Source of the DNA: an uncultured cyanobacterium | GTDB lineage: Bacteria > Cyanobacteriota > Cyanobacteriia > CAKZMO01 | Assembly (NCBI GenBank): GCA_963719515.1 | Contig: CAVRCJ010000006.1 | Span: 416,001-480,000 of the forward strand | Direction of reading: 5' to 3' | DNA length: 64,000 bases | Part shown: in pieces, positions 12,067 to 40,100 of the stretch | Layout: every line of letters starts with the position of its first letter | Numbering within the stretch: position 1 is the stretch's first letter | Translations under genes and position numbers: made by a program | Notes under the pieces: model-generated | Seen by the model: only the letters and a program-made list of their open reading frames with translations | Told to the model about the DNA's origin: nothing | Database searches by the model: none

Positions 12067-12458
12067 CTACTAGACAGGAAGCCCCGCGCTCTACCCGTCA
12101 GGGTGAGCGTCGGGATGAGAGTCGCGCTAGCCGAAGTGCGCCCGCAAAATGATGCACAGCGGATAGTGCGCTCAGCGCTGAGGCTAGCAGTTGGTATGAT
12201 AGAGATAGCAAGGTGATACACCCCGCAAAGAGTGTGACGGGCCCGTAGGCGAAAGCTGCAAGTCACCCGTTCCTCAGTTTGCAAATGTATCTGCGACACA
12301 TAGTGCGTATCCTCCCTCGCGGAGATGAAAATTCAAAACTCTGCCGTGGGGCATCAGGCGGAGTATAAACCTATCTCAGGATATGTCTCGGCAATAGCTG
12401 GGAGTCACTGAGGAAGCCCGCGCTGTACAGCTTGCTGTCAGCGTCGGGAGGATGTCAC
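12067..12458 (+). mobile_element. 392-bp non-autonomous IS200/IS605-type element (MITE/PATE-like) nested in tnpB
   Basis: Removing it restores tnpB frame (GCT GAT TTA G|AC ATT CCT = ADLDIP). Inserted after TTAG; left AAGC+CCCGCGCT..AGCGTCGGG hairpin; right GAAG+similar hairpin+TCAC. Confidence 0.85.
12192..12200 (+). promoter_or_regulatory. Putative extended -10 promoter inside the nested element
   Basis: TGGTATGAT fits TGnTAnnnT. Confidence 0.45.
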
Positions 12459-12478
12459 ACATTCCTCAACCCCCTGTA
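12207..12478 (+). ncRNA. Putative stand-alone TnpB omega-RNA-like transcript (scaffold plus ~20-nt flank guide)
   Basis: No ORF; TTCCTCAGT (12270-12278) pairs with ACTGAGGAA (12407-12415); GCCGTGGGGC motif resembles the outer tnpB 3' GCCGTCGGGC; ends in right-end hairpin; boundaries inferred. Confidence 0.5.
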
Positions 12479-13019
12479 GCAGGTCATATTGTTGGTGTTG
12501 ATGTTGGCCTGGAGTATTTTCTTTCCACCTCTGACGGCCTTCAGATTAAGCGCCCTCGATTCTTTGTGGATATGCAGCGCAAGCTGAAATTGCTGCAACG
12601 CAGATTGAAGCGAAAGAAGCGAGGGTCAGCAAACTGGATTAAGGCTCAGCAAAAGGTGGCGCGGCTGCACGAGTGCATCAGGAATACCCGCAAGGACTTC
12701 CACTTCAAAGTCGCACATCAGCTTTGCCATGGAGCCGATGTGATTGCAGTAGAAGACCTCAACCTAGTTGGACTGTCGCGGGGTATCCTCGGTAAGCACA
12801 TGCGCGATGCAGGCCACGGGCAGTTTCTCAATCAGATATTGCCGTGGATTGCTTGGAAGCGAGGCAAGGCGTATCTGAAGGTTGATGCTCGCGGCACTTC
12901 TCAGGAGTGCCCTGATTGTGGGGACAAAATAGTGAAGCAGCTATCTGACCGCTGGCATAGCTGCTCTTGTGGGGCGTCAATGCCTAGAGACGTTGCCAGC
13001 GGCCAGGTGATTCGACATA

Positions 13020-13178
13020 GGGCCGTCGGGCGGACGGTTCTTGAAAATGCCTGTGGAGACGGTCTAACGGGGGCAGTAGCTTAATGCTGTTGTCTAGCCA
13101 AGAGTAAAAGAAACAGGAATCTCCGACTGTACCCACAGGGTCAGGGGGAGTGCGTCAATCTTCCTGTTCACCTTTTTC
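13020..13178 (+). ncRNA. Putative omega/reRNA of the outer IS (overlaps tnpB 3' end; guide runs antisense into kaiC)
   Basis: Position expected from TnpB biology; CCTGT/ACAGG pairing and right-end hairpin present; boundaries inferred. Confidence 0.55.
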
Positions 13179-20438: not shown

Positions 20439-21185
20439 ATGACTGACCCCATCCCCACCGACATTCTTCAGGAATGCGATCGCCTCAAAACCCAGCTCGA
20501 CGCCCTCCGCCCCCTAGACCCCGCCCTCCTCAAAAACCTCCGAGAACTCTACACCGTCCGCCTCACGCACAACTCCACCGCCATCGAAGGCAACACCCTT
20601 ACTGAAACCGAAACTCAAATCGTCCTCGAAAAAGGCATCACCATCGGCGGCAAACCCCTTCAAGACCACCTAGAAGTGGTCAACCACGCCGAAGCCATCG
20701 ACTACATGCGCGACCTCGCCCAGACCAGCACCCCCATCACCCAATGGGAAGTTCGCCAAATGCATAGCTTGGTGTGCAAAGGAGATAAGCAGGCGGGAGC
20801 CTACCGCACCGTCAATGTCATGGCCGCAGGCACCAACTACCGGTATCCTAACGCCATCCAGGTGCCCGATCTGATGGCCGACTTCGGCACCTGGCTCGCT
20901 CACCCCCACCCCCTACATCCAATTGAAATTGCCACCGAACTCCATGCCCGTTTGGTCACCATTCACCCCTTCACCGACGGCAACGGCAGAGTCGCTCGCC
21001 TCCTAATGAACCTACACCTGCTGCGAACCGGCTACCCAATTGCCGTTGTCCAAGCCACTGACAGAGCCGCTTATATTGATGCTGTCGTCGCCTGGCAAGC
21101 CGGTCACACCAAACTCTTACTCGGTTTAGTGGCCGACTGCGTAAAAGCCTCAGCGATCGAAATCCTCGGTCTAGTGAATGGCTAA
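20439..21185 (+). CDS. Fic family protein (class II, N-terminal inhibitory helix)
   Basis: HPFTDGNGRVAR Fic motif; STAIEGN inhibitory motif. Confidence 0.93.
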   Translation: MTDPIPTDILQECDRLKTQLDALRPLDPALLKNLRELYTVRLTHNSTAIEGNTLTETETQIVLEKGITIGGKPLQDHLEVVNHAEAIDYMRDLAQTSTPITQWEVRQMHSLVCKGDKQAGAYRTVNVMAAGTNYRYPNAIQVPDLMADFGTWLAHPHPLHPIEIATELHARLVTIHPFTDGNGRVARLLMNLHLLRTGYPIAVVQATDRAAYIDAVVAWQAGHTKLLLGLVADCVKASAIEILGLVNG

Positions 21186-21805: not shown

Positions 21806-24800
21806 CTAGGCGATCGCCGATTCTCGGTCGCCTGTGGAATGCTCGTCTAAGGCCAGTTCGTCCTGCGCCACAGCCTGGTGCTCCCGCCAATAATCAAACT
21901 TCGTAGTATCGATATGCTCCACAATGCCGCCTAGCTGCCGCACCTGCTGCACCATGTCGTCTGTGCCGCCGGGGCCGTCGCCCCCCTGCCCGTCCCACAG
22001 CACAAGCAGCCGCATGCAGTCAATCCGGTGAGTGAGGGCGTTGTACAGCGTCCAGCGGTTGTTGCGGCTGTAGATATCCTCCCCATCTGGAACCTTGCCC
22101 AGCCGCTCGGGCTGTAGGTGAATCGTCGCGTCCGGGTGGTTGGCGATCGCGTAGAAGCGCTCCACCCAGCGATCGCCCGCAAAATTCACAGAGTCTTGAA
22201 TAAAGCCTGGAGGGTCAAAGGGGAGATAGATATCGGCCACCATGCCGCGAGCCAGGCAGGACTCTAAAAAGAGAATGTCGCCGCCGCAGGCGATGCCGCC
22301 GCAGATGGCCCTGCAGCCCGACTGAGCGCCCAAACGCTCTAGCACCGCCTCAATGCGCCGCTTGGCTTCCGGCTCCATGGTGGCCGGAAAGCGAGGCTTA
22401 GGCCGACTGGGGCTATCGATCATGTGGCCGGAGAACATAAATACGGGGGCGGCGGTGTCTCCGTCGCCCTCCTCAATCGTGGTGCTGTTGAACCGACGCA
22501 GCTCTTCGTCTAGTACGGTGCGGCCCGCCTCCACATACTCGGGGCGAAATTCCAGCAGGTGCAGCAGATACAGCTGATCCAAAATCGATTGGAGGGCAAA
22601 CTTTTGGTTCCACAGCGCCGTTAGGGCCTTTTTGTAGGCGATCGCCACCTGTATGGGCTCAGACGCGACGCACACCGCGAGGTCTCCCAGGGACGAGGCC
22701 GCCCAAAAGTCCTTGGGGTGGTTTTGCATCTGGCTGCGCAGGCAGAACTCCACCGCCCCCTTGAGGTCCATCATCTGCTGTCGGTAGGCCGCTTCGTCGG
22801 GGTCACCCGTCGGCCCTACCCGCTCCGCTAAGCTGTCCAGCACCGCCGTCAGCATAAAGGCGTTGATGCCAGGGTAATAAGAGTTTTGGTTGAGCCGGAA
22901 GGCGCGCAGGTAGTTTTCAATCGCCTTTTGCAAAAAGTGGGAGGCGTCGTAGGCGGCTTTGATGCGCAGCTCGGCCTCTTCTAAATGGAACCACTTGTCT
23001 TTCCATAGGTCTTTATAGATCCGAGCCAGATAGGCCATGGCCTGGGTGTGATTGGGCTCGTCCTCCAGCAGCGCCTCCAGCTTCACGATGGCCTCGTTGG
23101 GCTGATGCAGGCGGCTGAGGTGGTAGGCCTCCTCGCAGCGAAACTCGACGTTTTCTGGGTTAATGTCTAGCCCTTGTCGGTACTGCTTCAGGGCCAAAGC
23201 AGAGTTCCCCGTATCCCGCAGCACTTTTCCGGCGTAGGCCAGCACGTCTTCTTTCACCAATGGATTTTTCACTTCTTCGGTGAGCAGCAGCACATCGCCG
23301 ATGCGCTTTTGCCGTTGGGCGACCTGCAGCCGCTGCTGCAGACTGGTGTACTCTTCCCAGTAGCCGGTGGCTAGAGGGGTGCGCAGGGTCTTGCGGTCAG
23401 GCTCTATCAAGCCATCCAGCAGGTTGAAGATGGGGCTGTGAATGGCGTTGCGGTCCGACTCCCAGGTGGCAAGCAGGGTGCTGATAATGGCCTGCTTATC
23501 TTTTTTGAGGTGGGCGGGATCAGGACAGCCGCTGTCATCGCAGTGGTAGGGGATGGTGCGCACGTTGAAGATGTCGAAGGGCATGTAGGCCCGTCCGGAT
23601 TGGATGTGGACGATGCCCCGCTTGCGCATGGCGTGGCGGATGCCCAGCTCGTAGTAAACGTTGGCATTGTCGATGCTTAGGTCCGCAATCACCAGGTCCG
23701 CCAGCAGCAGCTCTTGGAACATATCGGTGAGGATGTCGCCGCTGGCGGATTCTTCGTCGGCGCGAAAGGGTTCGAATCGCGCCTCTAGCAGAGCGGGTTT
23801 GATCAAATCGCTGTAGATGCGGTCGAAGTCAATCCAGCTGCCATCGGCTGCCTGCTTACGGCCAAAGGGCATCACGACAAAAGCGTGGGGAGCTCCCCGA
23901 GGCACGGTGGGCAGCTCTGTAGGCACGGGGGCGGGGACAGGGGCGGGCAGAGGCGCAGGCTCTTCTACGACCACCGCTGCAGGCACGTTGGGCGGCACCG
24001 CATCGACGCTCTTGTCGTCGTCGGCCTGAGGTGGCGCGTCCTCGGTATCGGTGAAGCCGACGTCCACCGTGATCGGCGTGATCTCAGGTTCTGTCCCTTG
24101 AGGGACCTGGTCAAGTTCAACGGGGGTGGCGGTGGCGGCCTGCAGCAGCGTCTGGTCCGTATCGTCTAGCTCGGGAATGCCTGAGGGCTGGCCCGTCAGC
24201 AGCGCCTCAGTCGCCACAACCAGCTGAAAAAATTGGGAGCCCGTGCGCTCGTCTGGCATCAGCCCCAGCCAGCGATTGCGAATTAGCATTAGCTCTAGCC
24301 GCCGCTGCGTCGCCGCCTCCAGGGTCGCGGTTAGGCCAGAGATGTCAATCCACAGCCCCACCGCCAGGCTCGCTGCCAGAGGCAAGGCGGCCCACAGCCT
24401 GAAGGGACTGGCCAGCACCAGCAGTAAAATGCTGCAGCCCCCCAAGAGCACCACTACCACCCACAGCACCTGCTGCTGGCGCTGCAGCCCAGCCACCTGC
24501 CGCGCCAGCTGAGAAATTTGCGGGTCAAGGCGTTCTGTCAAGTAGCCTTCTGCCAGCAGGTCGGGGTAGCTCTCGCGGGACGCCGCCTTTGTCATTAGCA
24601 GAACTCCGGTGGGAGCCACCTGCTGCTGCACTTGCTCTACCTGGCAAGTTAGCCAATGATGTCGCTGCGGGATCTTTTGCAGCACGGTACGGTAGAGATA
24701 AATAGCCCGCCCTAGGGTCTCGGTAGCGCTCTGCAGGGCTGCCCAGGACCGCCGCTCTCGCATTTGGCTGGCGCTGACAAACAGCATTACGGCGGCGATC

Positions 24801-25048
24801 GCCAGCCCAATCGCGCCCACGCTGAGACCCAACGCCGAAGATGCCTTAGGGGAAGACAGCAGCGCCAAGAAAATTGCCCCTAACAGCAGCGTCATCCAAG
24901 CCGCTTGGACGAGCAGATATTTTCGAAAGGAGTCGCGACCGCTCTTTTGAAGCTGGATATAGAGCTGCCAAGCATCGGCCAACAGTGAGGAATCGGAGGG
25001 GCGATGGCGTTGCGTCATAGGTGTTGAAGGTGAGAAGGGTAGCTGCAT
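21806..25048 (-). CDS. Multidomain protein: N-terminal SLATT-like TM modules, deoxyribohydrolase/NDT-like domain, TPR (DUF4071/TPR-S-like), C-terminal SLOG-like domain
   Basis: Two 2-TM units (W..L.SATE.L...IYLYRT); AFVVMPFG...ADLVIADLSIDNANVYYELGIRHA; YYPGINA; FSGHMID...ACGGDILF...VLWDGQGGDGPGGT. Confidence 0.75.
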   Translation of the reverse strand: MQLPFSPSTPMTQRHRPSDSSLLADAWQLYIQLQKSGRDSFRKYLLVQAAWMTLLLGAIFLALLSSPKASSALGLSVGAIGLAIAAVMLFVSASQMRERRSWAALQSATETLGRAIYLYRTVLQKIPQRHHWLTCQVEQVQQQVAPTGVLLMTKAASRESYPDLLAEGYLTERLDPQISQLARQVAGLQRQQQVLWVVVVLLGGCSILLLVLASPFRLWAALPLAASLAVGLWIDISGLTATLEAATQRRLELMLIRNRWLGLMPDERTGSQFFQLVVATEALLTGQPSGIPELDDTDQTLLQAATATPVELDQVPQGTEPEITPITVDVGFTDTEDAPPQADDDKSVDAVPPNVPAAVVVEEPAPLPAPVPAPVPTELPTVPRGAPHAFVVMPFGRKQAADGSWIDFDRIYSDLIKPALLEARFEPFRADEESASGDILTDMFQELLLADLVIADLSIDNANVYYELGIRHAMRKRGIVHIQSGRAYMPFDIFNVRTIPYHCDDSGCPDPAHLKKDKQAIISTLLATWESDRNAIHSPIFNLLDGLIEPDRKTLRTPLATGYWEEYTSLQQRLQVAQRQKRIGDVLLLTEEVKNPLVKEDVLAYAGKVLRDTGNSALALKQYRQGLDINPENVEFRCEEAYHLSRLHQPNEAIVKLEALLEDEPNHTQAMAYLARIYKDLWKDKWFHLEEAELRIKAAYDASHFLQKAIENYLRAFRLNQNSYYPGINAFMLTAVLDSLAERVGPTGDPDEAAYRQQMMDLKGAVEFCLRSQMQNHPKDFWAASSLGDLAVCVASEPIQVAIAYKKALTALWNQKFALQSILDQLYLLHLLEFRPEYVEAGRTVLDEELRRFNSTTIEEGDGDTAAPVFMFSGHMIDSPSRPKPRFPATMEPEAKRRIEAVLERLGAQSGCRAICGGIACGGDILFLESCLARGMVADIYLPFDPPGFIQDSVNFAGDRWVERFYAIANHPDATIHLQPERLGKVPDGEDIYSRNNRWTLYNALTHRIDCMRLLVLWDGQGGDGPGGTDDMVQQVRQLGGIVEHIDTTKFDYWREHQAVAQDELALDEHSTGDRESAIA

Positions 25049-25224: not shown

Positions 25225-25407
25225 TTAATGCCCCGCCATCTTTTGAATGACCGACGTTTGCTGCTCAATCACTGAGGTCTGCTGTTGAGATAGCGCAATC
25301 AGAGACGCAATTGATTCCTGCTGCACCAGCTGCAGCGATCGCAGCTCGCTGATCTCTTGCCTTAGGGACTGAATTTGAGCCTGTACGTCGTCTTGAGAAA
25401 ATTCCAT
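25225..25407 (-). CDS. Small coiled-coil hypothetical protein (60 aa)
   Basis: Heptad-rich Q/L/I/S sequence, co-oriented between the two SLATT genes. Confidence 0.5.
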   Translation of the reverse strand: MEFSQDDVQAQIQSLRQEISELRSLQLVQQESIASLIALSQQQTSVIEQQTSVIQKMAGH

Positions 25408-25458
25408 AGTTGTCCCAAACCTGTTGGTTATTTTACATAAAGCCAGCGGCGACGCGTG

Positions 25459-26880
25459 CTAAGCCACGATGCGCGCCTTGGCCCGGTCGATGTACTTAGA
25501 GAATACATCCCAGCCATGGTAGCCGCCATTGACTAGCTTACGTACGCGCCGCCAGTCTCCGGCCCGGGCCGCTGTCGCGACGCCCCGGTCTTTGAAGTAG
25601 CAGGCCAGCACTTTAGCCGAAACTTCAGGATCCATCGCCAGATCGGGGTTGTTTTCTAAGTCAACGCCGAGCTTTTTACCGTAGGTGCGGTAGTTTGCCC
25701 GGCCCGTCAGCTGAATATAGCCCCGCCCGTGGTAGCGAACCCCATCGCCGGGGTGAATATTCCCCAGATCTTTGCGGCCTTCGTAGCGTTTCCAGTATTT
25801 CTCCCCCCCCCATTCATGAACGGGTTTCATTCCCGAGGTTTCGACGCGGATAGTGGCTAGCATGCCGATGAGCACGTGTTTGTCGAGGATGTCGTAGTCC
25901 TGCAGCGCCGCGAGAATGCCGGGAAGATACTTGCGGCAGTCTTCTAGCGGGCATTCCAGCACTTGCGACACCTCTTCCGCTGTTGCCAGCTGGGGCACTG
26001 AAGCTACGGCCCCATTTCCGCTACGGATTCTCTGGCCGGCTCCATTGCCATTGGCTACTGGCTTTGTCTGGTTCACAAGCGCCCGAAGCGCGTCGAGATC
26101 AACCTCCTCTTCCCAGGGCATCGCCGCAGCCCCCAGTGGCGGCAGCCCCTTCAACGGGTCTAGGCCATTGGGGGCTGCGGTCCCGTTTGCTACCGGCTCG
26201 CTGGCGTCGCCATCAGAAGAATGGGCCAGTCTTTGGCGTTCCTCTAACTGTCGGCGCTCTTCTAGCTGCTGCGCTCGCTCGAGCTGGACGTTAACGTTTC
26301 GCAGGGCGGCCTCGGCATTGAGCTGGGCCTCTTTAGCTGCGAGTTTATCTTCGTCCTGCTTTTCGTCTAAGCGAGCGAGGAATCCTTGGACATCCTGCTG
26401 GATGTATTGCTCGACGCGATTGGCAAAAGCGGTGTAGGCCTCGCTGTGGCTTTCAAACTGGTGATAGGGACCGGAGAGCTGGAAAAACTGCCACCCTTCA
26501 ATCTTCATCCCCTCCGCCGTGTTGCGGTAGTCACGGTATTTGTCGCCGTGGCCGAAGAACTCCTCCACCGCCGCCGAAACGGCAACGATCTGACTGAGCC
26601 CCAAAGCCGTCCATCCGACAGCGTTTTGAAAGCGCTGGTTTTCTTCGCCGGGACTGCGGAAGCTGATTAGCGCCGGCACTAAAACGCCGCCGACAATGGT
26701 GATCATTCGTAGGGTATGGTGGCGGTTGCGCTCTTTAGTGGCCCGGCCCTCTAGCCACATCAGCTGATCCAGCCAGCGATTTTTGAGAAACTCTTTGCGC
26801 AACTCGGAGATATCTAGACGATCGACGATACCGCCCAGGGTGTTCTTGAGATAGTTTCGGTAGTCATTCTTCTTGCCCAT
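25459..26880 (-). CDS. SLATT/DUF4231 membrane module fused to GH19 (lysozyme/chitinase-like) hydrolase
   Basis: RWLDQLMW..2 TM..YRNTAEGMKIEGWQFFQLSGPY; GH19: ATIRVET, GDGVRYHGRGYIQLTGRANY, NPDL, VNGG. Confidence 0.85.
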   Translation of the reverse strand: MGKKNDYRNYLKNTLGGIVDRLDISELRKEFLKNRWLDQLMWLEGRATKERNRHHTLRMITIVGGVLVPALISFRSPGEENQRFQNAVGWTALGLSQIVAVSAAVEEFFGHGDKYRDYRNTAEGMKIEGWQFFQLSGPYHQFESHSEAYTAFANRVEQYIQQDVQGFLARLDEKQDEDKLAAKEAQLNAEAALRNVNVQLERAQQLEERRQLEERQRLAHSSDGDASEPVANGTAAPNGLDPLKGLPPLGAAAMPWEEEVDLDALRALVNQTKPVANGNGAGQRIRSGNGAVASVPQLATAEEVSQVLECPLEDCRKYLPGILAALQDYDILDKHVLIGMLATIRVETSGMKPVHEWGGEKYWKRYEGRKDLGNIHPGDGVRYHGRGYIQLTGRANYRTYGKKLGVDLENNPDLAMDPEVSAKVLACYFKDRGVATAARAGDWRRVRKLVNGGYHGWDVFSKYIDRAKARIVA

Positions 26881-27319: not shown

Positions 27320-28513
27320 ATGAATCTTCACCTTAACGTCCTCCAGCCTCAGTACGAGCGAGCGTTTCTCAACTGCGCTATTCGGTCCGACAGTCAGTCG
27401 CAGGTCGAGGCGATCGCCAATCAGATGGTTGGGCTGCGATCGCATTACGAAGCCGTAGAAGCAGAGACGGGAGTGCCCTGGTGGTTTGCCGGGATTTTGC
27501 ACTACCGGGAGTGGAATTTTCGGGAGCCTGAGCTGTTTGAGCGTAAAGCAGCAGAGGTTTTGATTGCCAAAAACTATCATCAGGCCCGTACGCGCACCTT
27601 AGGAGCCTACCTGTGGGGCTTTGACCTTTGGAACGGGTTTCGAGACGGCTCGGGTGAAGACTCCTCCTGGGTGTGGGCGGGCACCAACATTCTTGAAGAG
27701 GACACCCAAAAAATTGGGGTTGCCGCCATCCTGGTGTATCTGCAGAAGAGGAATATCATCGACATGCCTAAGCCCCAAAAGGGGGCGCGGCTGATAGTGC
27801 TTGCAGATACCACCTTTAAGGTCCGGCCCGAGCAGTCCTACCGCCTGAAGTCAGACGAGAAGATGGTCGTCAAGGCGGGGACTCAGCTCGAGGTGCTAGA
27901 AGACGATCCAGCGGAGGGCAACCACACCAAAATTGTGCTCCCCGATGGGGTACTGATGGGGCAGGATAGCCGCAGTGACTGGTATGTGTTCAGAGGGCAT
28001 GTGTCCATGGAGGGCACTGATCCAAAAAATCAGCCCAAGGACGAGCCCGAGGAGCCTGTCGCCTCGGTGGCTTCTGAAGACAAAGGAAACCCCATTACGG
28101 TGCCTAAGCTGGGCACCGTGTATCTCGGCAACCCCATCTTAGAAGGGGGGCATTTTAGCTGGGCTGAGGCCACTAAAAACGGGGCCCGCATTCCCGTAGA
28201 CGGGGGGGTTGTGGACGGCATCCTTAAAATTGCTGAGGTGATGGAAGAGGTGCGGGAGCATCTGGGCGATCGCTCCATTCGGGTTAACTCCTGGTACCGC
28301 GACCCGGTAACCAACCGCCGCGTGGGGGGAGCCAGCAAATCGCGCCACCTGAGCGGCGATGCGGTGGACTTTGTGGTGTCAGGCATCTCTCCGCCTCAGG
28401 TGAATCGTCAGCTCGAGTCCTGGTGGAACAGCCAGGGCGGTCTGGCCAGCGCCAGCAGCTTTACCCACCTCGACGCTCGCGGCTATCGCGCCCGCTGGTC
28501 ATACGGATTTTAG
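27320..28513 (+). CDS. Peptidoglycan hydrolase: lysozyme-like N-term plus peptidase M15A C-term
   Basis: YEAVEAETGVPWWFAGILHYRE; SWYRDP..NRRVGGASKSRHLSGDAVD...FTHLD zinc ligands. Confidence 0.82.
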   Translation: MNLHLNVLQPQYERAFLNCAIRSDSQSQVEAIANQMVGLRSHYEAVEAETGVPWWFAGILHYREWNFREPELFERKAAEVLIAKNYHQARTRTLGAYLWGFDLWNGFRDGSGEDSSWVWAGTNILEEDTQKIGVAAILVYLQKRNIIDMPKPQKGARLIVLADTTFKVRPEQSYRLKSDEKMVVKAGTQLEVLEDDPAEGNHTKIVLPDGVLMGQDSRSDWYVFRGHVSMEGTDPKNQPKDEPEEPVASVASEDKGNPITVPKLGTVYLGNPILEGGHFSWAEATKNGARIPVDGGVVDGILKIAEVMEEVREHLGDRSIRVNSWYRDPVTNRRVGGASKSRHLSGDAVDFVVSGISPPQVNRQLESWWNSQGGLASASSFTHLDARGYRARWSYGF

Positions 28514-28528: not shown

Positions 28529-31500
28529 ATGAATAGCTTCCAAGATGCGTTTATCTCCTACGGACGCAAGGACAGCAAGGCGTTTGTCGCTCGCCTAAAT
28601 CAGCGGCTGTTGGCGGCGGGGTTAGAGATTTGGTTTGATTTTGACGACATTCCCCTGGGTGTGGACTTTCAAAATCAAATCGATGACGGCATTGAAAAAT
28701 CCCACAACTTTTTGTTTGTCATCTCTCCTCACGCCGTCAACTCTCCCTACTGCCGCAAGGAAATTGAGCTAGCGCTTCGCCACCGTAAGCGGGTTATCCC
28801 GCTACTGCACGTGGAAGAAGTAGACCGGGCAACCTGGGCAGCGCGATCGCCAGACGGTACCAATGAAGATTGGGACACCTATTGCGCTCAGGGACTGCAG
28901 TCTAGCTTTGTCAACATGCACTCCGACATCGCTAAGATCAACTGGGTCTATTTTCGCGAGGGGCAAGACGACTTTGAGGCTGCGTTTGCAGGGCTGTTGG
29001 ATATCATCGGCCGCCAGCAGGATTACGTGCATCAGCATACCTATCTGCTCAAGGATGCTCTCACCTGGGAGCGGCAGCAGCGGCAGCCTACCTACCTGCT
29101 GGGCAAAGACGCCGGGCGTGCCCACCAGTGGCTGACGAAGACGTTTGACGAGCAGCCCCCCTGCTTCGCTACTGATCTGCAGGCGGAGTTCATTACCGAA
29201 AGCCTAAAGCGGGTCAACGGGGGGATGACCCAGGTGTTTTTGTCCTACAGCGAGGAGAACCGGCTGCAGCGGGAAGTAATTCACCGTATTCTCCAGCGTC
29301 AGGGCTTCACGGTTTGGGTCAACACCACCGATATTCAGAGCGGTACGGATTTTGAGCAGGCGATTCGAGAAGGCGTAGAGCGGGCTGACACCGTCGTTTA
29401 TTTGCTCTCCCCCAATGCTTTGGCCTCCCAATACTGTCAGCAGGAGCTTGGCTTTGCCCAAACCTACAACAAGCGGATTATCCCACTGCTGATTCACCCT
29501 GTGGATGGGGTGGAGGTGCCCGATGAGCTGCGGGTCATTCAGTTTATCGACTTTCAAATGATTTCTGGGACTGATGAGGCAGAAGGCAGGGTCGAGGACG
29601 AGGCGGCGCAGGGGGCCATCGCCAAGCTGATTCAGGTGCTGCGGCAAGACGAAGACTATTATGACTGCCACAAGCGCACCCTAGTCAAGGCGTTGCACTG
29701 GGAGCGCAACCGACGCCGCAAGAAGCACCTGCTGCGGGGGAGCGCGTTTGCCGAGGCGGAAACCTGGCTGACGGCCAGTCGGCACCAGACGCTCCCGCCC
29801 ACTCGTCTGCAGGAAGCGTTTATCCAGGCTAGCCAGGACATCAACCGCTACTTTGACGCCTTTATCTCCTATGGACGCGCCGATAGTCTTCAGTTTGCGG
29901 TTCAAGTGCAAGAGCAGCTGAGCCAGCAGGGGCTAAGCGTCTGGCTCGATAAAAGCGACATTCCGGTGGGGGTCGACTATCAGGCTCAGATCAACGACGG
30001 CATCAGCAAGTCCCACAATTTCATTTTCATCATCTCCCCCCATGCGGTCCACTCCCCCTACTGCCTCAAGGAAATTGAGTTTGCCCTGAAGTTCAACAAG
30101 CGCATCGTGCCCCTGATGCACGTTGAAACCATTAGCTACGAGACCTGGCGGCAGCGCAACCCTGAGGGCACTTCGGCCCAGTGGAAAGATTACCAAGCGG
30201 CGGGGCGGCATACCGCACAGGGAAGCGTCCACTCCGAAATCAGCAAAATCAACTGGCTCTTTTTCCGTGAGGGGGTAGACGAGCCCGAAGCCGCGATCGC
30301 CAGCCTCATCGAGCTGCTGCGGCAGCATGAGCCGGTGGTTCATCTGCACACTGAGCTATTGCTCAAGGCGTTAGCCTGGGATACTCACCAGCGGCAGGCT
30401 CAGTATCTGCTCACCGGAGACGATCGGCGGGAGGCGGAAGCCTGGCTGACGGCAGACTTTGCGGAGGAGCAGCCTCCCTACCGACCCACCGACCTGCAGG
30501 CGGCGTTCATCACTGAAAGCATTAAAAGCGTTGACGGGACGACGCAGGTGTTTTTGTGCGCGGCGGACGAGTATGGGAATGAGGAGCCTTCAGCCTCAGA
30601 GGCACCGGCGGCGGACACTCCTATACTCCAGTCAGCTCAGATTCGGCGAGCCCTGCAGCGCTCGGGCATTCCCGTCTGGAATCCCCAAACAGATGTGCAG
30701 GCCGGGGAGAATTTACAGCGGGCGATCGCTCGCGGGGTTGAGGAGACCGACAGCGTTGTGTTTGTGATATCGCCTCAAGCGCTGGTAGAAACGGTGTGTC
30801 TTGAGATTTTAAACCAGGCATTTCAGCTCAACAAGCGCATCATTCCGGTGCAGCTGCAGGCCTTGGATAATCTGAAGCTGCCCTCGGTGCTCAAGTCGCT
30901 GCGGCCCATCGGGCTAGAGCGCGATGGCGGCGGGCTGACGGAACTGAGCGTCCAGCAGCTCGTGGGAGCTCTGCGTCAAGATGCGGTGTACTACCGCACC
31001 CACAAGCTGCTGCTGCGCAAAGCCCTCAAGTGGGAGCGGCAAAAATATAACCCCAGTATCTTACTGCGGGGCAAAGCGCTGCGGCGCTATGTCACCTGGC
31101 TCGACGTGGCGCAGCGCCGTGAGCATTCTCCCATTCCCATTCAGCAGCGCTTTGTCCGCGAAAGCCTGGACCAGCCCCCTAACCAGACCGTGGACGTGTT
31201 TATTGCCTCAGCTCCAGAGGACATCGAGTTTGCCCGCAGACTGAACCAAACCCTCCAGGTTCAAAGTAAGACCACTTGGTTTGAGCAAGAGCACCAGGCC
31301 ACCGAGGTCGACGCCCAAGGCGATGTTCGGCAGGCGATAGAAAACGCCGAAAACGTGGTGGTAGTGGTGTCTCCTAACTCGGTGGGCTCTGCCGCTGGCC
31401 TCAAAGAGCTAGAGCATGCAGAAGCCCTCAACAAGCGCGTTATTCCAGTGCTCTATCAAGAGGTGCTGATTTCGAAGCTGCCCCCCGTCTTAGAGAAGCG

Positions 31501-33040
31501 CTCGGCCATCGACTTCCGCGCCAACAGCGGCGACTTTTTGACCAACTTTGGCGAGCTCTACCGGGCCATTGAGAGCGAGCCCCAGCATATGTATCAGCAC
31601 ACGCGGCTGCTAGTGAAGGCGAAGGAGTGGCACGACGCAGGGCGAGACGACAGCTACCTGCTGCTGGGACGCGATCGCGATGAGGCGGTGGACTGGCTGG
31701 CGGCGGCTGACGCTAAGACCCCCTCGCCTACAGATCTGCACCGAGGCTACGTTAAGGCGAGTCAGCAGCTGCCGTTTCGCCGTATCAGGCGGCGCTTTGC
31801 GGTGCTCACCAGTCTGGCGGCGACCGTCTTGGTGGGCGGGCTGAGGTTGGTGGGCGGCCTGCAGGCGGCGGAGCTGCAGGCGTTCGATCACCTGCTGACG
31901 CTGCGGCCCAGTGAGCCCCAGGACGATCGCTTTTTGACGGTGACGGTGGATCAGTCGAGTGGCTCCTGGCTGCGGGAGCGCTTGATTGACGGCGACTACG
32001 AGCCGGGATTGGGCACGGTGCCCGACCAGGCGCTGGCGGAGGCGATCGCCTATCTCAACGAGCAGGGGGCGCGGCTGATTGGCATTGACTTCTACCGCGA
32101 CTTTCCAGCAGAACCAGCGCTCGCCCAGCAGCTTCGGCAGCTCGACAACGTGATGGGCATCTGCAAAGCGAGCGACGACTTTAGCGAAGGATTTATGGCA
32201 CCTAGCGACGTGCCTGTTGAGCGGGTTGGCTTCAACGACTATCTCAGCGATGGCGGTAGCGTAACTCGTCGCCACTATCTTAAGCAGGACAATGATCCTG
32301 AGTTCTGTGACACGGAAGACAGCTTTAGCCTAGTCTTAGCGCGGCGCTACTTGGCTCAGGAGGGCGTTGACTACGTCGATCCTTGGGACGAGGAGACTTG
32401 GCCCCCTGCCCTGAAGTTTGGGGAGACCACCATACCTGAGCTGTATCGCGGCCGCAGTGCGGGGTACTCCCTATCTTTGGCCGGTGCCGAGTCAAACAGC
32501 TCGGTGAATGGGTTGGGGGGCTACCAAACGATGCTCAACTTCAGAGCCCACAACGGGGATGCAACCCAGTTTGCGCCGGTCATCAGCTTAAAAGACGTGC
32601 TCACCCGTAGCGCTCCTCGCGACCTAATTGAGGGGCGTGTTGTGCTCATTGGCTATGAGGATTTATCGGATCGCAACGCAGATGTGTACAACACGGCTTA
32701 CCAGGAAATGCCTGGCGTTATGCTTCAAGGACAGATGACGAGTCAGCTGATTAGTGCCGCCCTAGATAATCGCCCCTTGATCTGGTATTTCAACCTAGAG
32801 TACGACCTTCTGTGGATTGGCGCTTGGTCCCTGGTCGGCGGCTTGGTCTTTTGGGGGTTCGTTCGTCCATCACGGCTGATTCCAGCCAGTGCTGCTGTCT
32901 TAGGTCTCCTTTACGGGAGCTGCTATGTCGCCTTAGCTGGGTCAGGTCTCTGGTTACCGCTTGTTCCAGCCGCGATCGCATACCTTGTGGCAGGTGCGGG
33001 CGTGAGTGCCTTGAGCTATCGCGTCCGTCATCCATCGTAG
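28529..33040 (+). CDS. Multi-TIR (5 copies) - CHASE2 membrane receptor
   Basis: AFISYGR/VFLSYS/AFISYGR/VFLCAA/VFIASA TIR starts with SP....S..C..E; TM; CHASE2 (ELQAFD, IGIDFYRD, VGFND, GRVVLIG, PGVMLQGQMTSQL); 3 C-terminal TMs. Confidence 0.88.
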   Translation: MNSFQDAFISYGRKDSKAFVARLNQRLLAAGLEIWFDFDDIPLGVDFQNQIDDGIEKSHNFLFVISPHAVNSPYCRKEIELALRHRKRVIPLLHVEEVDRATWAARSPDGTNEDWDTYCAQGLQSSFVNMHSDIAKINWVYFREGQDDFEAAFAGLLDIIGRQQDYVHQHTYLLKDALTWERQQRQPTYLLGKDAGRAHQWLTKTFDEQPPCFATDLQAEFITESLKRVNGGMTQVFLSYSEENRLQREVIHRILQRQGFTVWVNTTDIQSGTDFEQAIREGVERADTVVYLLSPNALASQYCQQELGFAQTYNKRIIPLLIHPVDGVEVPDELRVIQFIDFQMISGTDEAEGRVEDEAAQGAIAKLIQVLRQDEDYYDCHKRTLVKALHWERNRRRKKHLLRGSAFAEAETWLTASRHQTLPPTRLQEAFIQASQDINRYFDAFISYGRADSLQFAVQVQEQLSQQGLSVWLDKSDIPVGVDYQAQINDGISKSHNFIFIISPHAVHSPYCLKEIEFALKFNKRIVPLMHVETISYETWRQRNPEGTSAQWKDYQAAGRHTAQGSVHSEISKINWLFFREGVDEPEAAIASLIELLRQHEPVVHLHTELLLKALAWDTHQRQAQYLLTGDDRREAEAWLTADFAEEQPPYRPTDLQAAFITESIKSVDGTTQVFLCAADEYGNEEPSASEAPAADTPILQSAQIRRALQRSGIPVWNPQTDVQAGENLQRAIARGVEETDSVVFVISPQALVETVCLEILNQAFQLNKRIIPVQLQALDNLKLPSVLKSLRPIGLERDGGGLTELSVQQLVGALRQDAVYYRTHKLLLRKALKWERQKYNPSILLRGKALRRYVTWLDVAQRREHSPIPIQQRFVRESLDQPPNQTVDVFIASAPEDIEFARRLNQTLQVQSKTTWFEQEHQATEVDAQGDVRQAIENAENVVVVVSPNSVGSAAGLKELEHAEALNKRVIPVLYQEVLISKLPPVLEKRSAIDFRANSGDFLTNFGELYRAIESEPQHMYQHTRLLVKAKEWHDAGRDDSYLLLGRDRDEAVDWLAAADAKTPSPTDLHRGYVKASQQLPFRRIRRRFAVLTSLAATVLVGGLRLVGGLQAAELQAFDHLLTLRPSEPQDDRFLTVTVDQSSGSWLRERLIDGDYEPGLGTVPDQALAEAIAYLNEQGARLIGIDFYRDFPAEPALAQQLRQLDNVMGICKASDDFSEGFMAPSDVPVERVGFNDYLSDGGSVTRRHYLKQDNDPEFCDTEDSFSLVLARRYLAQEGVDYVDPWDEETWPPALKFGETTIPELYRGRSAGYSLSLAGAESNSSVNGLGGYQTMLNFRAHNGDATQFAPVISLKDVLTRSAPRDLIEGRVVLIGYEDLSDRNADVYNTAYQEMPGVMLQGQMTSQLISAALDNRPLIWYFNLEYDLLWIGAWSLVGGLVFWGFVRPSRLIPASAAVLGLLYGSCYVALAGSGLWLPLVPAAIAYLVAGAGVSALSYRVRHPS

Positions 33041-34090: not shown

Positions 34091-34168
34091 ACTGTTGGCC
34101 CACAGCTATTGGTTCACAGCTCTAAGTCGCGGTCTCCAGAGCGCCTACAAACCTACTGCCTTAACCCT

Positions 34169-37100
34169 ATGCCTGCCTACTCTCTTACGCTACGGCTCTC
34201 CCTACTGACGGCGGCCCTGATGCTGCTGGGCCAAACCTCAGCCGTGGCTCAGTCCGTCGTCGAGGCTGACGACGACGTTGGCACCGTGGTGAGGCAGCGC
34301 GATCGCACCTTCGATATTGACGGCGGCACCCGCTCGGGCGACGGACACAATCTATTCCACAGCTTCGAGCAGTTTGGCCTGGACGCGGGCGAAATCGCCA
34401 ACTTTCTCTCTGACCCGGAGACCCGCAACATTTTGGGCCGGGTAATGGGCGGTGAGGCCTCCCTGATTGACGGGCTGCTGCGGGTGAGCGGCAGCGACGC
34501 CAACCTGTTTTTGACTCAATCCGGCGGGCGTGATTTTTGGCGAGACTGCTCGCCTAGACGTGGGGGGAGACTTCACGGCGACCACCGCCACCGGCATTGG
34601 GTTTGGTGAGGGGTGGTTCCCGGCTGTGGGAGATGGGGACTACAGCGCCCTGGTGGGCGACCCGACGGCGTTCGACTTCGCGGTGGCGACTCCCGGATCT
34701 ATCGTTAACGCTGGCGCGCTGGCGGTGACGCCGGGAGCGTCTCTCACATTGCTCGGAGGGAGCGTGCTGAACACCGGCACCCTCACCGCGCCGGGAGGCA
34801 CCTTGACCATTGCGGCGGTGGAGGGCGATCGCCGGGTGCATATTACCCAAGAGGGGATGCTGCTGGGGCTGGAGCTGGAAACCCAGGATTCTCCTGCTGC
34901 TGAAAATGCGCTGCCCTTCACGCCGCTGGCTCTGCCGGAGCTGCTGACTGGAGGCGGGGTCAGCAGCGCTAGCGCGGTGCAGGTGAGCGACGGGGAGATC
35001 AGGCTGAGCGGCTCGGGGCTGACGGTGCCCAGCGGTGCGGGGACGGCAATCGCCTCAGGCACCCTAGACGCCTCTGATCCAGGGCGCTCTACGGCGGAAA
35101 TTAATGTGGTGGGCGATCGCGTAGTGGTCGCAGACGCAGCGCTGGACGCCTCCGGCGCAGAGGGGGGAACGGTGCGCGTCGGGGGAGATTTGGGCGGTGC
35201 TGGGACCATTCCCAACGCCAGGGACACTCTGGTGACTGCCGACAGCGCGATTCACGCCGACGCGCTCGCGGGAGATGGCGGCACCATAGCGGTCTGGTCT
35301 GATGAGACGGCGACCGTGGGCGGGGTGCTGACGGCGCGGGGGGGCGCGATCGCCGGTGACGGGGGCTTCATCGAAACCTCGGCCAGCACCTTGACCCTCA
35401 ACAGCACGCCGGATGCCAGCGCCCCCAGCGGCAGCGGCGGCACCTGGCTGATTGACCCTACCGACATCGACATTGTGGCGGGAGCGGGGGCGATCGGCAG
35501 CAATACGGTAGGGGCTGACACCATCAGCGCTGCTCTGAATACGGGCACTAGCGTCACTATTACCACCGAGATTGGCGGCACCGATGCGGGCAACATTACC
35601 CAAGCCGCAGACGCGCCGATCGCCAAGACAGAGGGCGGTGACGCGCAGCTGGCCTTTGAGGCTGCCGGTGACGTTGCCCTACCTGCAGAAATTACGGCGA
35701 CCAGCGGGGCGCTAGACGTGACGGTTATTGCCGACGCCGATGGCAACGGCAGCGGGGTCGTTAGCGTTGGCAACGCCGGAGCGGGGGGTATCACTTCCAA
35801 CGGCGGGGCTATTGCGATTACCGGCAGCAGCAACAACCCAGCCTCTGACTTCGGAAGCGGCGTCCGCATTCAGGGGCCGGTCTTCTCCGGCGGCGGGGAC
35901 ATCACGATCGCAGCGGCGACGGCGCTGCCTGATGAGACCCCCATCGATTTGCGATCGCCGGTCGACGTCGGGACAGGGACGCTGACGCTTCAAGCCGACC
36001 TGCTGCCCCCCGCCTTCGAAACGCTTCAGGGCACCGGCACCTTACAGCTGCAGCCCTTCTCCCCGGCGATCGCCTTTGACCCCACGGGAATCGACCTAAC
36101 CGCTGTCCCAGACACCTTCAGCAATGTGATCGTCGGCGACCCCAACAGCACCGCGCCAATTCTTATCAGCGACGACTTAGCTTTTAGCAGACCGCTAACG
36201 CTGCAGACCACAGGCGATATCACCTTCGATGCGGACGGAGCGCTGATCACGATTGACGGTCCCAGCCTCAGCGCTATTTCGGGCAATACCATTCGCATCA
36301 ACTCAGATTTAGATGCAACCGACTTAGCTCTGACCGCTACCAACGACATCGTCTTCAATAGCGCGATGGTTGCCGCCCAGAATTTGAGTGCGATCGCCGC
36401 CAACAACATTGTGATCGCGCCGGGGGTGTCTCTCACCTTTGGGATTCCCGACGAGCTGTCGGCTGTGCCGCTGCCGGAGGATGCCGCGATTGTGCTGACT
36501 GCCAACGCTGATGGCGTGGCGGGGGGGGACGTGACGATGGACAGTACCGAATCGCTTACGATTCCTGGCGGACGCGACCTCAGCGCTTCTGGAGAAAATG
36601 TGGTCCTTGGCACGCTTTCGGTGGGCGACTTTCTGCAGCCGTTTGATGCTGGTGACGTTATCACCGGCTTCATCGAACGACCGGCGGCAGATGTGACCTT
36701 GAGTGCCGCCGCCGACCTTTCGGTCACTCAGCTCGAATCTAGCGCCAATACAGGCGGAGACCGGTTTGTACCGACCTTGCCTATCCAGGCTATCCAACAG
36801 GGGGGGGACGTCTCCCTGTCGTCTGCGGTAGGCGATATCACCGTCGCGGGCAGCATCCGCGTTGAAGCTGACCCATCGGGCGCTCAGACCGATCTGCAGG
36901 GGGGCAGCGTCACTATCAGCGCAGCTCAGGGCGACGTCACCATTGGCGACAACATCAGCACCTTTGCGCGGGACAATGCTCCTGGCAGGGATGCCGTAGA
37001 CGTCGACTTAGTTGGTGGTGATATTGATATTGATGCTCCCAATGGCGAGGTAAGGGTGGGCGGACAGCTGGCAACCTTTGCCCGCAACACTATGCCAGGA

Positions 37101-40100
37101 GAGGTCTCTGTGGGAACGGGGGGGAGTGTCAGCATCGTGGCAGACCGCATCCGCATCGACAATGCTGCTGAAGATCGTATCGGTGTCTTCGCTATCGAAG
37201 CGCCAAGCGTCGACGAGATCATAGATGCCCCCGGCATAGGTGGGGCGATCGCCCTGACGGCCCCGGGCGGCGTTCAAGTTGCTGGAGACATCATCACCAG
37301 CAACGCCCCGATTACGATTGACGGTCCTGCCATCCTCAGCACTCCGGAGGGAGACCGCGTCAGCGTCACTAACCAAGGTACGACGGGGGCGATCGCCTTT
37401 GGCGACACCCTAGATGCGCCGGACGGCCTGCTGGTAGAGTCTGGGGCGGGAGATGTGACCTTCGATGGCGCGGTGGGCTCCAGTACCCCGCTGGACAGCC
37501 TCAGCATCGAAAGCAGCGGGGCAACCCGGTTTAACGATGATGTCAGCGCCGTCAGCCTCACCACCGACGGCGGCGGCAGCACGGACATAGGGCTCAACCC
37601 CACCCTGAGCCTTGACGCCCTTTCCCTGGGGGATACGCTGCTGGGCAGCGGCAGCCTGACGCTGCAGACGCTTTCACCTGGGCTGGCGATCGCCCTGGGA
37701 ACGCCGATAGGGTCGCTACCGGCAGACTTGGTGTTGAGCGCCGCCGCCACGGGGCAGCTGTCGCAATTTTCGGGTCTTGCGGTGGGTCGACCCGACGGCA
37801 GCAACGATGTTGGGGTTTTTGCCCCGATCACCGTCAATGGCCCCGTGACGCTGACCGGTGGTGACATCACCGTTGACGCTGCTGCCGCCCTAGAGACGTT
37901 GAGGGGAGATATCGCCCTTGACGGCGACGGTGTTGACATCGCTGGAACCCTGGCCTCGAATGGTGGAGATATTGCGGTGAGCGGTGACGCTGGCGACGGA
38001 GGCATCGACGTCGCCCTATCGGGGACGATCGCTGCCGGGAGCGGGGATATCGCTCTGACAGGCAGCCAAATCGACATTGCCCCGGAGGCTACGGTCAGCG
38101 GCAGCAGCCTGCTGCTGGTCCAACCCAACGTCGCCGACCTCGACATTGAGCTGGGGGGCACGGCGGGGTTCCTCAGCCAGAGCGAGCTGGACGCCCTGGC
38201 CGCTGGCTTTGGCGAGATTACCATCGGCCAGCCTGACAGCACGGGCAGCGTTACCCTGAGCAGTGGCGTACGCGTCAGCAGCCCCCTCACGATCGCAGGC
38301 GGGTCTATCCTCATTGGCCCTGACCAAGACACAATATTCACGATCACCGATGGCGATGGCGGCCGCGTTTCCGGACTGGGGTCCCCCGTTCGGTTCGAGA
38401 ATTTTGAGGCGATCGCGGCGGGCAGCGGTGACGATACGTTCCGCAACGGCAGCGTCTTTGACGGGGCGCTGGACGGCGGCGCTGGGTTCGACACCTTTGA
38501 GGCGGAAGCTGACGGCACTATCGAGCTTACAACCCTCGATCTGGAGAACATTGAGGCCATTCGCGGCAACAACAGCAGGCTGCTGGGAACCGCCGGGGCT
38601 GATGACTTCTCGGTTACTGCGTCAGATACAGTCGAGGTGCAGGGCTTCAGCATCAGCGAGCTGGCTCAGGTCGACGGCGGCGCGGGCAGCGATCTGTTCC
38701 GAGTTCTGACGGCGGCAGCGCTCGACGATTTTATTCGTGGGGGGGCGGGCGACGATGAAATAAGCTACGCAGGACTCACTGGGTCCCCTCAGCATCGACT
38801 TAACCGCCCTCAACCCCGAGGGCATTGAGACCCTTACGGGCAGCGCTGGCGACGATACGATTCAGCTGGGCAATAGGTTTGACGGCGCGCTGTTTAGCGG
38901 CAGGATTGGGGGCGGCCCTGGCGATCTCACCCTGCGGGGCGGGACGCTCAACCTGGCGGAGCTGACCCTCAGGGCAGCTGGCGATCTGACTATTGAGGGC
39001 AATGGGGCAGTGACGGTCGGGAACCTAATCAACCCCGGAACCGATATCACTATTACCGGTAGCGCCATCACCACCGGCACCCTCAACACCAGCGCTGCGG
39101 AAGCGGAGGGGGGGGCGATCGCCCTTCGGTCAGACTCATTCATCGAGACCGGCACCCTAATCACCTCGGGGCTGTCGGGCGGTAACCTACGAGTGGAGGC
39201 CACCACTGAAATCACCACGGACCGCATCGACACTAGCGGCGCTCTTGACGACGGTGGCGACGGCGGCGACGTTTTGCTTGACCCCAGCGGCGATATTCAG
39301 GTGACGAGCATCAACGCGCAGGGCGGGCCAGCTGGCATCGGGGGGACGATTGACATTACCACCGAGAGGTTCTTTCGGGCCACCGGCCAGTTTACGGATC
39401 AGACCAACACCCGAGCGAGCATCTCGACAGCTGGGGGCGGGGGGGGCGGTCCGATTACAATTCGCCACGGCGGAGCGGGACTGATTCCTTTTTCCATCGG
39501 TGACGGCGGCGGCGATCTTCTCAACGGCACCTCAGCGGCGATCGCCAGCGGGACTGCTGCCCTATTGCCGGTTCAGGCCATTGAAGAGAGCCTCACGGTC
39601 GGCAATATTCGGATTTTGACCGACGTGTCAGAACGGGCAGACGTGCTAGATCTCGATCCCTGCCCTCCGAACTGCGGGGACCTAGAGGCAGATCGTCTCG
39701 GTCAGTTTCAAGCCTCAGATCTTGAGGCAGACGTCTCCGACAGCATAGACTCGCCCCTCGTCGAGACCCTATCTACCAACATCGGCGAGGTCGCAGCCGC
39801 TGTCTCACAGCTAGAGGAGCAGTTCACCGCAGAGTTCTCTGAATACTTGCGGTTGGGCCGTCCGGATCGGGTCTCGCTCTCTGAGCTGCAGGCCAGTCTA
39901 CGGCAGGTCCAAGCGCAAGCCGATATCTCTCCCGCCATTCTCTATGTCACCTTTGAGGATAGGGAAACGAAACAAAGGCACTTCGATTTCGCAATCCGAT
40001 CGCCGTCTGGAGCTGATTTTGGTGACGGCAGATGGATTGCCCTTGCACCTCCGCGTACCTGAGGTAACCCAGCGACAGCTGCAGCTCGAAGCGGCGCGGC

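Follow-up and report, generated by a model that had tools for sequence, protein, structure and literature searches.

The TIR and SLATT immune effectors described so far kill a cell either by depleting its NAD+ or by breaching the membrane. Two-gene LSDAT(SLOG)-SLATT modules were reportedly described by Burroughs et al. in 2015. In the available text of PMC7159879 and PMC9503650, where these modules are cited, and in that of bioRxiv 10.64898/2026.04.29.721553, SLATT is predicted to be a nucleotide-responsive pore effector. In type VII Thoeris, as far as the available text of bioRxiv 10.64898/2025.12.03.692087 describes it, a cADPR-making TIR is paired with the SLATT effector ThsH, whose SLATT is thought to form membrane-breaching assemblies; neither lysozyme nor peptidoglycan occurs in that preprint’s main text. 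Phage holin-endolysin pairs (endolysins of SPN1S, 4ok7, and PWe2, 9ms7) combine a membrane protein of two transmembrane (TM) helices with a signal-less muramidase, and cyanophages are reported, in the available part of PMC12596118, to lack spanins. Type 10 secretion, according to the accessible sections of PMC10847048 and PMC10109510, joins a chromosomal holin-like protein and a signal-less wall hydrolase, with lysis of a subpopulation of cells. Here we describe a gene in which SLATT and a wall hydrolase are one protein. Our literature search found no description of SLATT/DUF4231 fused to a wall hydrolase, and neither did term searches of PMC6459960 and PMC8195603; Burroughs et al. 2015 or the supplements of the Thoeris preprint could mention one briefly. 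The SLOG-SLATT core was already known, and the branch fused to wall hydrolases is real and widespread in a subset of cyanobacteria.

The gene lies in a window of 64,000 nucleotides (the whole stretch of DNA that was analysed) on a 500-kb contig of a genome that is 100% complete. It is an ORF of 473 aa on the minus strand (25459..26880), the core of our finding, in which a SLATT (DUF4231) domain (residues 31-170, 26371..26790, minus) leads into a long helix or coiled coil (residues 145-221) and a low-confidence linker (about residues 222-296; 25993..26448 for both, minus), followed by a GH19 domain of apparent endolysin type (residues 297-473, 25462..25992, minus). The AlphaFold model likewise has a helical hairpin, the long helix at 145-221, a low-confidence linker at 222-292, and a confident GH19 domain, and the fusion architecture proposed in the initial annotation was borne out, with a linker that appears disordered. 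That annotation had worried about an assembly chimera. We exclude this, because full-length homologues of the fusion exist in many genomes at 55-72% identity and in a genome of the same genus at 81%; 68 of the 120 listed homologues (of 605) share the same SLATT-GH19 fusion. Logan contigs from four runs of one study add little, as they cover the gene in pieces, none of them spanning it, and neither joints nor indels were recorded for them. Among the data sets listed for the fusion gene there was none of RNA, promoter and terminator scans stayed at chance level, and the plasmid search gave no match. A short motif (residues 246-258, 26107-26145) is kept within the otherwise variable linker, and in its place the linkers of other clades have repeated acidic motifs; it is possibly a docking, autoinhibitory, or cleavage site. 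A G9 run lies inside the GH19 coding region (25803-25811), and in one Logan protein that is otherwise near-identical (P0001) the reading frame shifts at this point. Phase variation at this run was considered and rejected: because homologues interrupt it by synonymous changes, it is no conserved switch.

The GH19 domain ranks first as an endolysin (muramidase) rather than a chitinase by sequence, fold, and PHROG, and we consider it to be probably of that type. Pfam PF00182 matches residues 379-424 with 32.1 bits against a cut-off of 25.5, the best sequence matches in the PDB are the PWe2 (E 4.5e-23) and SPN1S endolysins with chitinases behind them, and among the PHROGs a phage endolysin matches best (E 8.9e-44). 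Superposition of the domain on the PWe2 endolysin (9ms7) gave a TM score by target of 0.90 and an rmsd of 1.5 with Foldseek, and a Z of 23.3 and an rmsd of 2.2 over 175 aligned residues with VIA. The six best PDB sequence matches and the five best fold matches are all endolysin or lytic-type proteins, with chitinases lower. The glutamates of the VET and HEW motifs that were initially put forward as catalytic candidates, E347 (25840-25842, minus) and E356 (25813-25815, minus), are invariant in alignment A1 (23/23) and kept in all 43 fused GH19 domains that include the region; we take them to be the catalytic pair from the alignment to 9ms7 and the usual GH19 spacing. A search with 42 residues around these glutamates found nothing. 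The same genome encodes a second, free GH19 protein (L107:8196-9590, contig C6), which has a hydrophilic N-terminus and belongs to a different GH19 lineage.

The N-terminal domain matches DUF4231 (PF14015) in Pfam at residues 38-146 (E 1.6e-30) and SLATT_1 (NF033634) in NCBIfam at residues 31-170, with 98.6 bits against a cut-off of 41. Two TMs had been claimed for it, and by hydropathy two hydrophobic helices do exist (residues 56-74 and 87-105; 26659-26715 and 26566-26622, minus), but they are only weakly to moderately hydrophobic, with Kyte-Doolittle values of 1.84 and 1.60. The first hydrophobic stretch begins only at residue 56, in keeping with the claim that there is no signal peptide. 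Lys/Arg counts, a rule of thumb and no measurement, point to an N-in/C-in orientation in 32/32 fused and 34/35 solo SLATT domains among those that our script could parse from 139 rows, and favour the predicted, probably cytoplasmic location of GH19 suggested in the initial annotation. Searches of Pfam, NCBIfam, and PHROGs gave no match to a holin-family model; phrog_7395, which the SLATT part matches, is a PHROG of no assigned function. Structural searches with SLATT gave no Foldseek match at E<=0.001 and a best VIA match (Z 8.4, rmsd 4.9, 140 aligned) to BAR-like bundles, which is uninformative for a helical protein, and the SLATT profile returned spurious repeat matches only from the PDB sequences.

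The wall enzyme varies between homologues. Besides the GH19 fusions, the same 120 listed of 605 homologues include 27 that join DUF4231 to a GH24 lysozyme, those with names being nearly all from Nostocales, and the Glu-Asp-Thr triad of GH24 is intact in 16/16. A profile search of 1.84 billion representatives returned at least 150 proteins, and among the 36 long ones that were scanned in Pfam a C39-like peptidase occurs in four (two with a further GH19 and one with GH24), GH24 in two (in one of them alone), GH19 in two, M15 in one, and an LSDAT-SLATT fusion in six. One C39-like SLATT fusion matches a PHROG endolysin at 8e-62, and four further representatives have, in a C-terminal domain without a Pfam match, a Cys...His motif that we read as possibly NlpC/P60-like. 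The fused GH19s fall into three distinct lineages, and the SLATT tree has at least eight enzyme changes among 20 fusions. On a quick tree, with 11 cut or mislabelled rows left out, an AU test (p=0.01) rejected a single clade that would set the 20 fused SLATTs apart from the other 13; since losses could explain this as well as repeated gains, we do not claim independent fusion origins. As the enzymes are swappable on the same SLATT, the conserved unit is SLATT plus some wall-cutting enzyme, and the initial likening of the protein to a holin and endolysin in one is thereby strengthened. In an even sample of the phylum, the SLATT subfamily was found in 31 of 401 genomes, mostly solo, and fusions in only six, this one counted. 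Judging from the record titles, the fusion loci presumably belong to mostly filamentous taxa. Cultured carriers include Leptolyngbya PCC 6406, PCC 7375, Nostoc, and Calothrix NIES-22, so the module is directly testable. Tandem SLATT fusions with different enzymes adjoin each other in L176, L179, and L181, one enzyme being NlpC/P60-like and the other SH3-like plus C39 plus GH19; the second gene of the L179 pair is cut by the contig end.

Within the window, the fusion belongs to a group of genes in the order 1080-aa gene, 60-aa ORF, fusion (minus strand), then M15 hydrolase and 5xTIR-CHASE2 (plus strand), of which the first and the last two were absent from the initial annotation. The 1080-aa membrane protein (21806..25048, minus) has an N-terminus of SLATT type with four TM peaks, a TPR-S, and a SLOG-like C-terminus (about residues 866-1060); SLATT_1 and TPR-S are above cut-off, and among the Atlas leads for the C-terminus a cluster with the name DUF1273 scores 0.93 and YpsA SLOG clusters score 0.85-0.87. 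Its residues from about 388 to 546 we take to be a TIR/deoxyribohydrolase-like domain. Divergent from the fusion gene is a second wall hydrolase (27320..28513, plus), its start set from an alignment of homologues, with a presumably lysozyme-like N-terminus, an SH3-like middle, and a peptidase M15 (PF08291, E 2.3e-19); it matches the PHROG endolysin phrog_894, and a hydrophobic N-terminus or signal peptide is absent from 51/51 homologues of this second hydrolase. It is followed by a 1503-aa protein with five TIR domains plus CHASE2 (28529..33040, plus), in which the catalytic-position Glu is kept in four of the five TIRs. The LSDAT gene of this genome sits on another contig. A PHROG scan of the 26 other ORFs of the window (E<=1e-15) found no phage structural or lysis gene, in agreement with the earlier remark that no phage genes are nearby; the surroundings include other housekeeping genes as well as kaiABC-like genes (about 13.2-16.2 kb, identified by their translations), which mark the window as cyanobacterial.

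We compared 75 loci, that is, the window and 74 loci from the best 80 of 540 matches, which are close kin rather than independent cases, so linkage counts in them overstate independence. The recurring module genes occur in shuffled order and strand between lineages, and comprise an LSDAT SLOG protein (PF18171), proteins of 3-5 TIRs that end in WD40 propellers or CHASE2, and a second hydrolase whose C-terminal M15 or other peptidase matches a PHROG endolysin, some of these peptidases being presumably YkuD-like. CHASE2, DUF928, CHAT, and haemagglutinin-like genes recur as well, and genes of the 1080-aa SLATT-TPR-S-SLOG-like type are present in 13/75 loci. The 64 muramidase-fusion loci have a second signal-less hydrolase in 48 cases, LSDAT in 43, TIR in 35, and a TIR or SLOG-type protein in 57; where both flanks reach at least 8 kb (28 of the 64), a TIR or SLOG is found in 27/28 and the second hydrolase in 25/28. 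As background, TIR occurs in 6.9% and LSDAT in 0.5% of 20,000 random 21.4-kb windows of the fusion’s own genome. The catalytic-position Glu is kept in 142/159 neighbouring TIR domains, covering 41/41 genes. Of the 26 solo-SLATT loci in the even sample, 17 have LSDAT, six have TIR, and one has a separate wall hydrolase. Among the five fusion loci from other genomes of that sample, four have two hydrolase genes, two have a triple TIR, and two have LSDAT; L178 and L188 lack both TIR and SLOG within about 9 kb. The second-hydrolase link is therefore specific to fusions, and the TIR link is real but not obligatory. A separate C39/NlpC clade stands beside triple-TIR or LSDAT genes in three of four loci (L176, L179, and L181, not L178). 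Leptothoe-type genomes have stable synteny and a housekeeping context, unlike a typical defence island, and PADLOC 2.0 gave no match for the fusion or LSDAT.

Next to the fusion is a Gln-rich helical protein of 60 aa (25225..25407, minus), a conserved accessory gene of one branch that was found in 21/75 loci. Its core has 186 synonymous against 66 non-synonymous codon changes, and its start is at most 6 nt from the fusion’s stop in 17/20 loci, which by the codon and spacing patterns indicates a real gene under purifying selection that is translationally coupled. The protein has no export signal and no Pfam, NCBIfam, PHROG, or PADLOC match, and all of its Atlas leads are under 0.9. It had been suggested as an inhibitor or adaptor of the fusion. 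The gene is present in 21/47 GH19 loci and 0/17 GH24 loci, and a six-frame search found it missing from many intact GH19 loci; because of these absences (26/47 and 17/17), an obligatory inhibitor role is unlikely; the protein might serve the coiled coil as an adaptor. GH24 loci have an unrelated 111-aa gene in its place, with no Pfam or PHROG match, which in L042 (11505-11840) and 18 other loci is always located between the fusion and the second peptidase. It follows the type of the partner peptidase, which is beside it in 19/19 cases, and not the type of the muramidase.

Split versions of the system were also found. A 70.9-kb IMG/VR viral contig contains a compact operon of TIR-FHA > SLATT > PG-binding endolysin (L109:2547-4788), which could be an element-encoded, TIR-timed lysis cassette; a viral scan with its TIR gave a self-match only. 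In L163, LSDAT > SLATT > one other gene > C39-GH19 > C39 > TIR-WD40 are on one strand. A scan of viral contigs found no full fusion match among 51 hits, of which 50 are distant and SLATT-like (27-32% identity; L110-L159), many of them on contigs labelled as giant-virus MAGs; the remaining one, which is close, has SLATT on its own. GenBank phages gave one distant match.

Our leading proposal, to which we give about an even chance of being right, is that the fusion does the killing in a self-lysis module which cyanobacteria encode on the chromosome and which a nucleotide signal gates. When a threat is sensed, phage infection being the likeliest, the TIRs would turn NAD+ into an ADP-ribose-type messenger, which would be read by SLOG or SLATT; the SLOG role could fall to LSDAT in relatives and to the SLOG-like end of the 1080-aa neighbour in the window. 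The SLATT hairpins would then oligomerise and breach the inner membrane, doing the job of a holin. Until then GH19 would be harmless in the cytoplasm, held on the coiled coil and a flexible tether of roughly 75 residues; afterwards it would reach the peptidoglycan together with the free M15 or similar hydrolase, so that both glycan and peptide bonds are cut and the cell lyses, which in a filament would sever it from the adjoining cells. Architecture, catalytic residues, enzyme swapping, and gene linkage are observed; messenger production, sensing by SLOG or SLATT, pore formation, hydrolase access, and lysis are inferred from type VII Thoeris and from the predicted role of SLATT as a nucleotide-responsive pore effector. 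The proposal is consistent with the swapping of enzymes on a constant SLATT and the retention of catalytic residues in GH19, GH24, and TIR, with linkage to TIR, SLOG, and second hydrolases above the background of the own genome, with the same wiring in the split versions L109 and L163, and with the precedent of type VII Thoeris, as described in the available part of its preprint, in which a cADPR-making TIR acts with a SLATT effector. Several observations weigh against it: the TIR and M15 genes of the window are on the opposite strand, outside the fusion’s operon, with LSDAT on another contig; two of the five even-sample fusion loci are without TIR or SLOG, and TIRs also flank six of the 26 solo-SLATT loci; the related loci are close kin (the best 80 of 540 matches); PADLOC gives no match for the fusion or LSDAT; the locus has stable housekeeping synteny in Leptothoe-type genomes; and the hydrophobicity of the hairpin is no more than marginal. 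CHASE2 points to a cue from outside the cell and not to a phage. In its fullest form, which we offer only tentatively, the fusion is a domesticated, second-messenger-gated holin-endolysin of filamentous cyanobacteria, in which a TIR/SLOG signal related to Thoeris and TRPM-SLOG opens a SLATT pore for tethered and free wall hydrolases and an infected or doomed cell dissolves its own wall, being cut out of the filament.

The same facts of fusion, second hydrolase, and missing signal peptides would also be expected if SLATT served a signal-controlled and largely non-lethal export resembling type 10 secretion, in which signal-less wall hydrolases are released for local remodelling (filament breakage, hormogonium release, or the passage of large surface proteins) and TIR-CHASE2 reads an environmental cue. 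The stable housekeeping context and the recurrent CHASE2, DUF928, CHAT, and haemagglutinin-like neighbours fit this account, and non-lytic holin-dependent secretion is known (PMC9527704, available text). We nevertheless think this account, the main rival of self-lysis, rather unlikely: the available text of bioRxiv 10.64898/2025.12.03.692087, PMC7159879, and PMC9503650 assigns SLATT, SLOG, and TIR partners to modules of conflict and cell death, rapid enzyme swapping would fit an arms race better than housekeeping, and the SLATT subfamily is present in only 31/401 sampled genomes. The initial annotation had envisaged a latent autolysin, possibly restrained by the 60-aa protein and passively released on membrane damage. 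Such an enzyme would be kept from the wall by the predicted N-in/C-in topology, and the 60-aa gene, apparently under selection and coupled to the fusion, would suit a partner of this kind, but that gene is missing from so many GH19 loci (26/47) and from all GH24 loci (17/17) that we regard the idea as improbable. Passive release is further disfavoured because it leaves the TIR and SLOG linkage and the L109 operon unexplained; these conserved neighbours point to a dedicated nucleotide trigger.

With an N-terminus that stays constant, an enzyme that varies at the C-terminus, and a small gene downstream, the locus also has the layout of a polymorphic toxin, so that SLATT might deliver or load variable wall toxins into other bacteria and the small ORFs might confer immunity. 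The top structural matches of the domain include TseP (8xcl), an effector of the type VI secretion system (T6SS), and a contractile-injection tube family occurs in 4/5 fusion genomes tested, but the genome of the window, although 100% complete, has no tube match, and the T6SS sheath VipB is in 0/5. Because the small ORFs are without export signals they could not guard the periplasm, and the 111-aa ORF follows the peptidase partner (19/19) instead of the muramidase type; we consider an offensive effector very improbable. The Pfam name of GH19, ‘chitinase class I’, and its best PHROG match, a phage endolysin, could be taken to mean that the gene encodes a chitinase, or that it is a lysis gene which a prophage left behind and which has no link to host signalling. 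This we find scarcely credible: endolysins and lytic proteins outrank chitinases in both PDB sequence and fold matches, orthologues exchange GH19 for GH24 and peptidases, and there are no phage genes nearby and no full fusion on the scanned viral contigs.

With a self-lysis module as our preferred reading, the locus can be set against the systems described at the outset. Like type VII Thoeris, as far as its preprint is available, it has a catalytic-looking TIR near a SLATT protein, but in the fusion loci SLATT is joined to a wall hydrolase and the TIR protein combines 3-5 TIRs with WD40 or CHASE2; SLOG proteins and another hydrolase are added, and the TIR of the window is divergent. The two-gene TIR + SLATT operon of that type is not found in the window, where the TIR gene lies on the opposite strand beyond the M15 gene; only L109 has a TIR directly before SLATT. 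The domain pair of the LSDAT-SLATT modules recurs here, as LSDAT adjoins 17/26 solo SLATTs and is fused to SLATT in six representatives; those solo loci are rarely near a wall hydrolase (1/26), whereas the fusion branch adds one or two. GH19 fold and residues, the two-TM membrane part, and the signal-less muramidase recall phage holin-endolysin pairs, but the present protein is a single chromosomal polypeptide with no phage context and no holin-family match, and apparently responds to TIR/SLOG signalling. Type 10 secretion, in which a holin acts with a peptidoglycan hydrolase, differs in turn, as there is no canonical holin here and the partners belong to nucleotide signalling; a holin-like protein and hydrolases are present, and the nearby haemagglutinin-like gene is frameshifted. 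The fusion would thus work like a holin-endolysin pair under a Thoeris-like alarm, and is not a member of either family. If this is true, it would represent a class of immune effector that destroys peptidoglycan and would join nucleotide-signalled immunity with holin-endolysin lysis; DUF4231 would gain a testable function, the route by which signal-less cyanobacterial wall hydrolases reach their substrate would be explained, and necridia or the programmed breakage of filaments would have a candidate basis in defined genes, which bears on the long-open question of how filaments give up single cells and break.

Some features of the surroundings deserve mention in their own right. The haemagglutinin-like/CHAT gene downstream of the TIR gene (34168-41026, plus) is split between four reading frames, the breaks lying near 34.5, 38.8, and 39.8-40.1 kb, and is either a pseudogene or the product of assembly indels; similar genes flank the module in relatives. 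A Fic-domain gene lies just outside the module (20439-21185), and a transposase-like fragment is present at 12452-13081. On contig C11 of the same genome, a TIR-TIR-WD40 gene is divergent from a tandem SLATT-SLATT gene (L106:4547-9730), which is a second TIR/SLATT pair in this genome.
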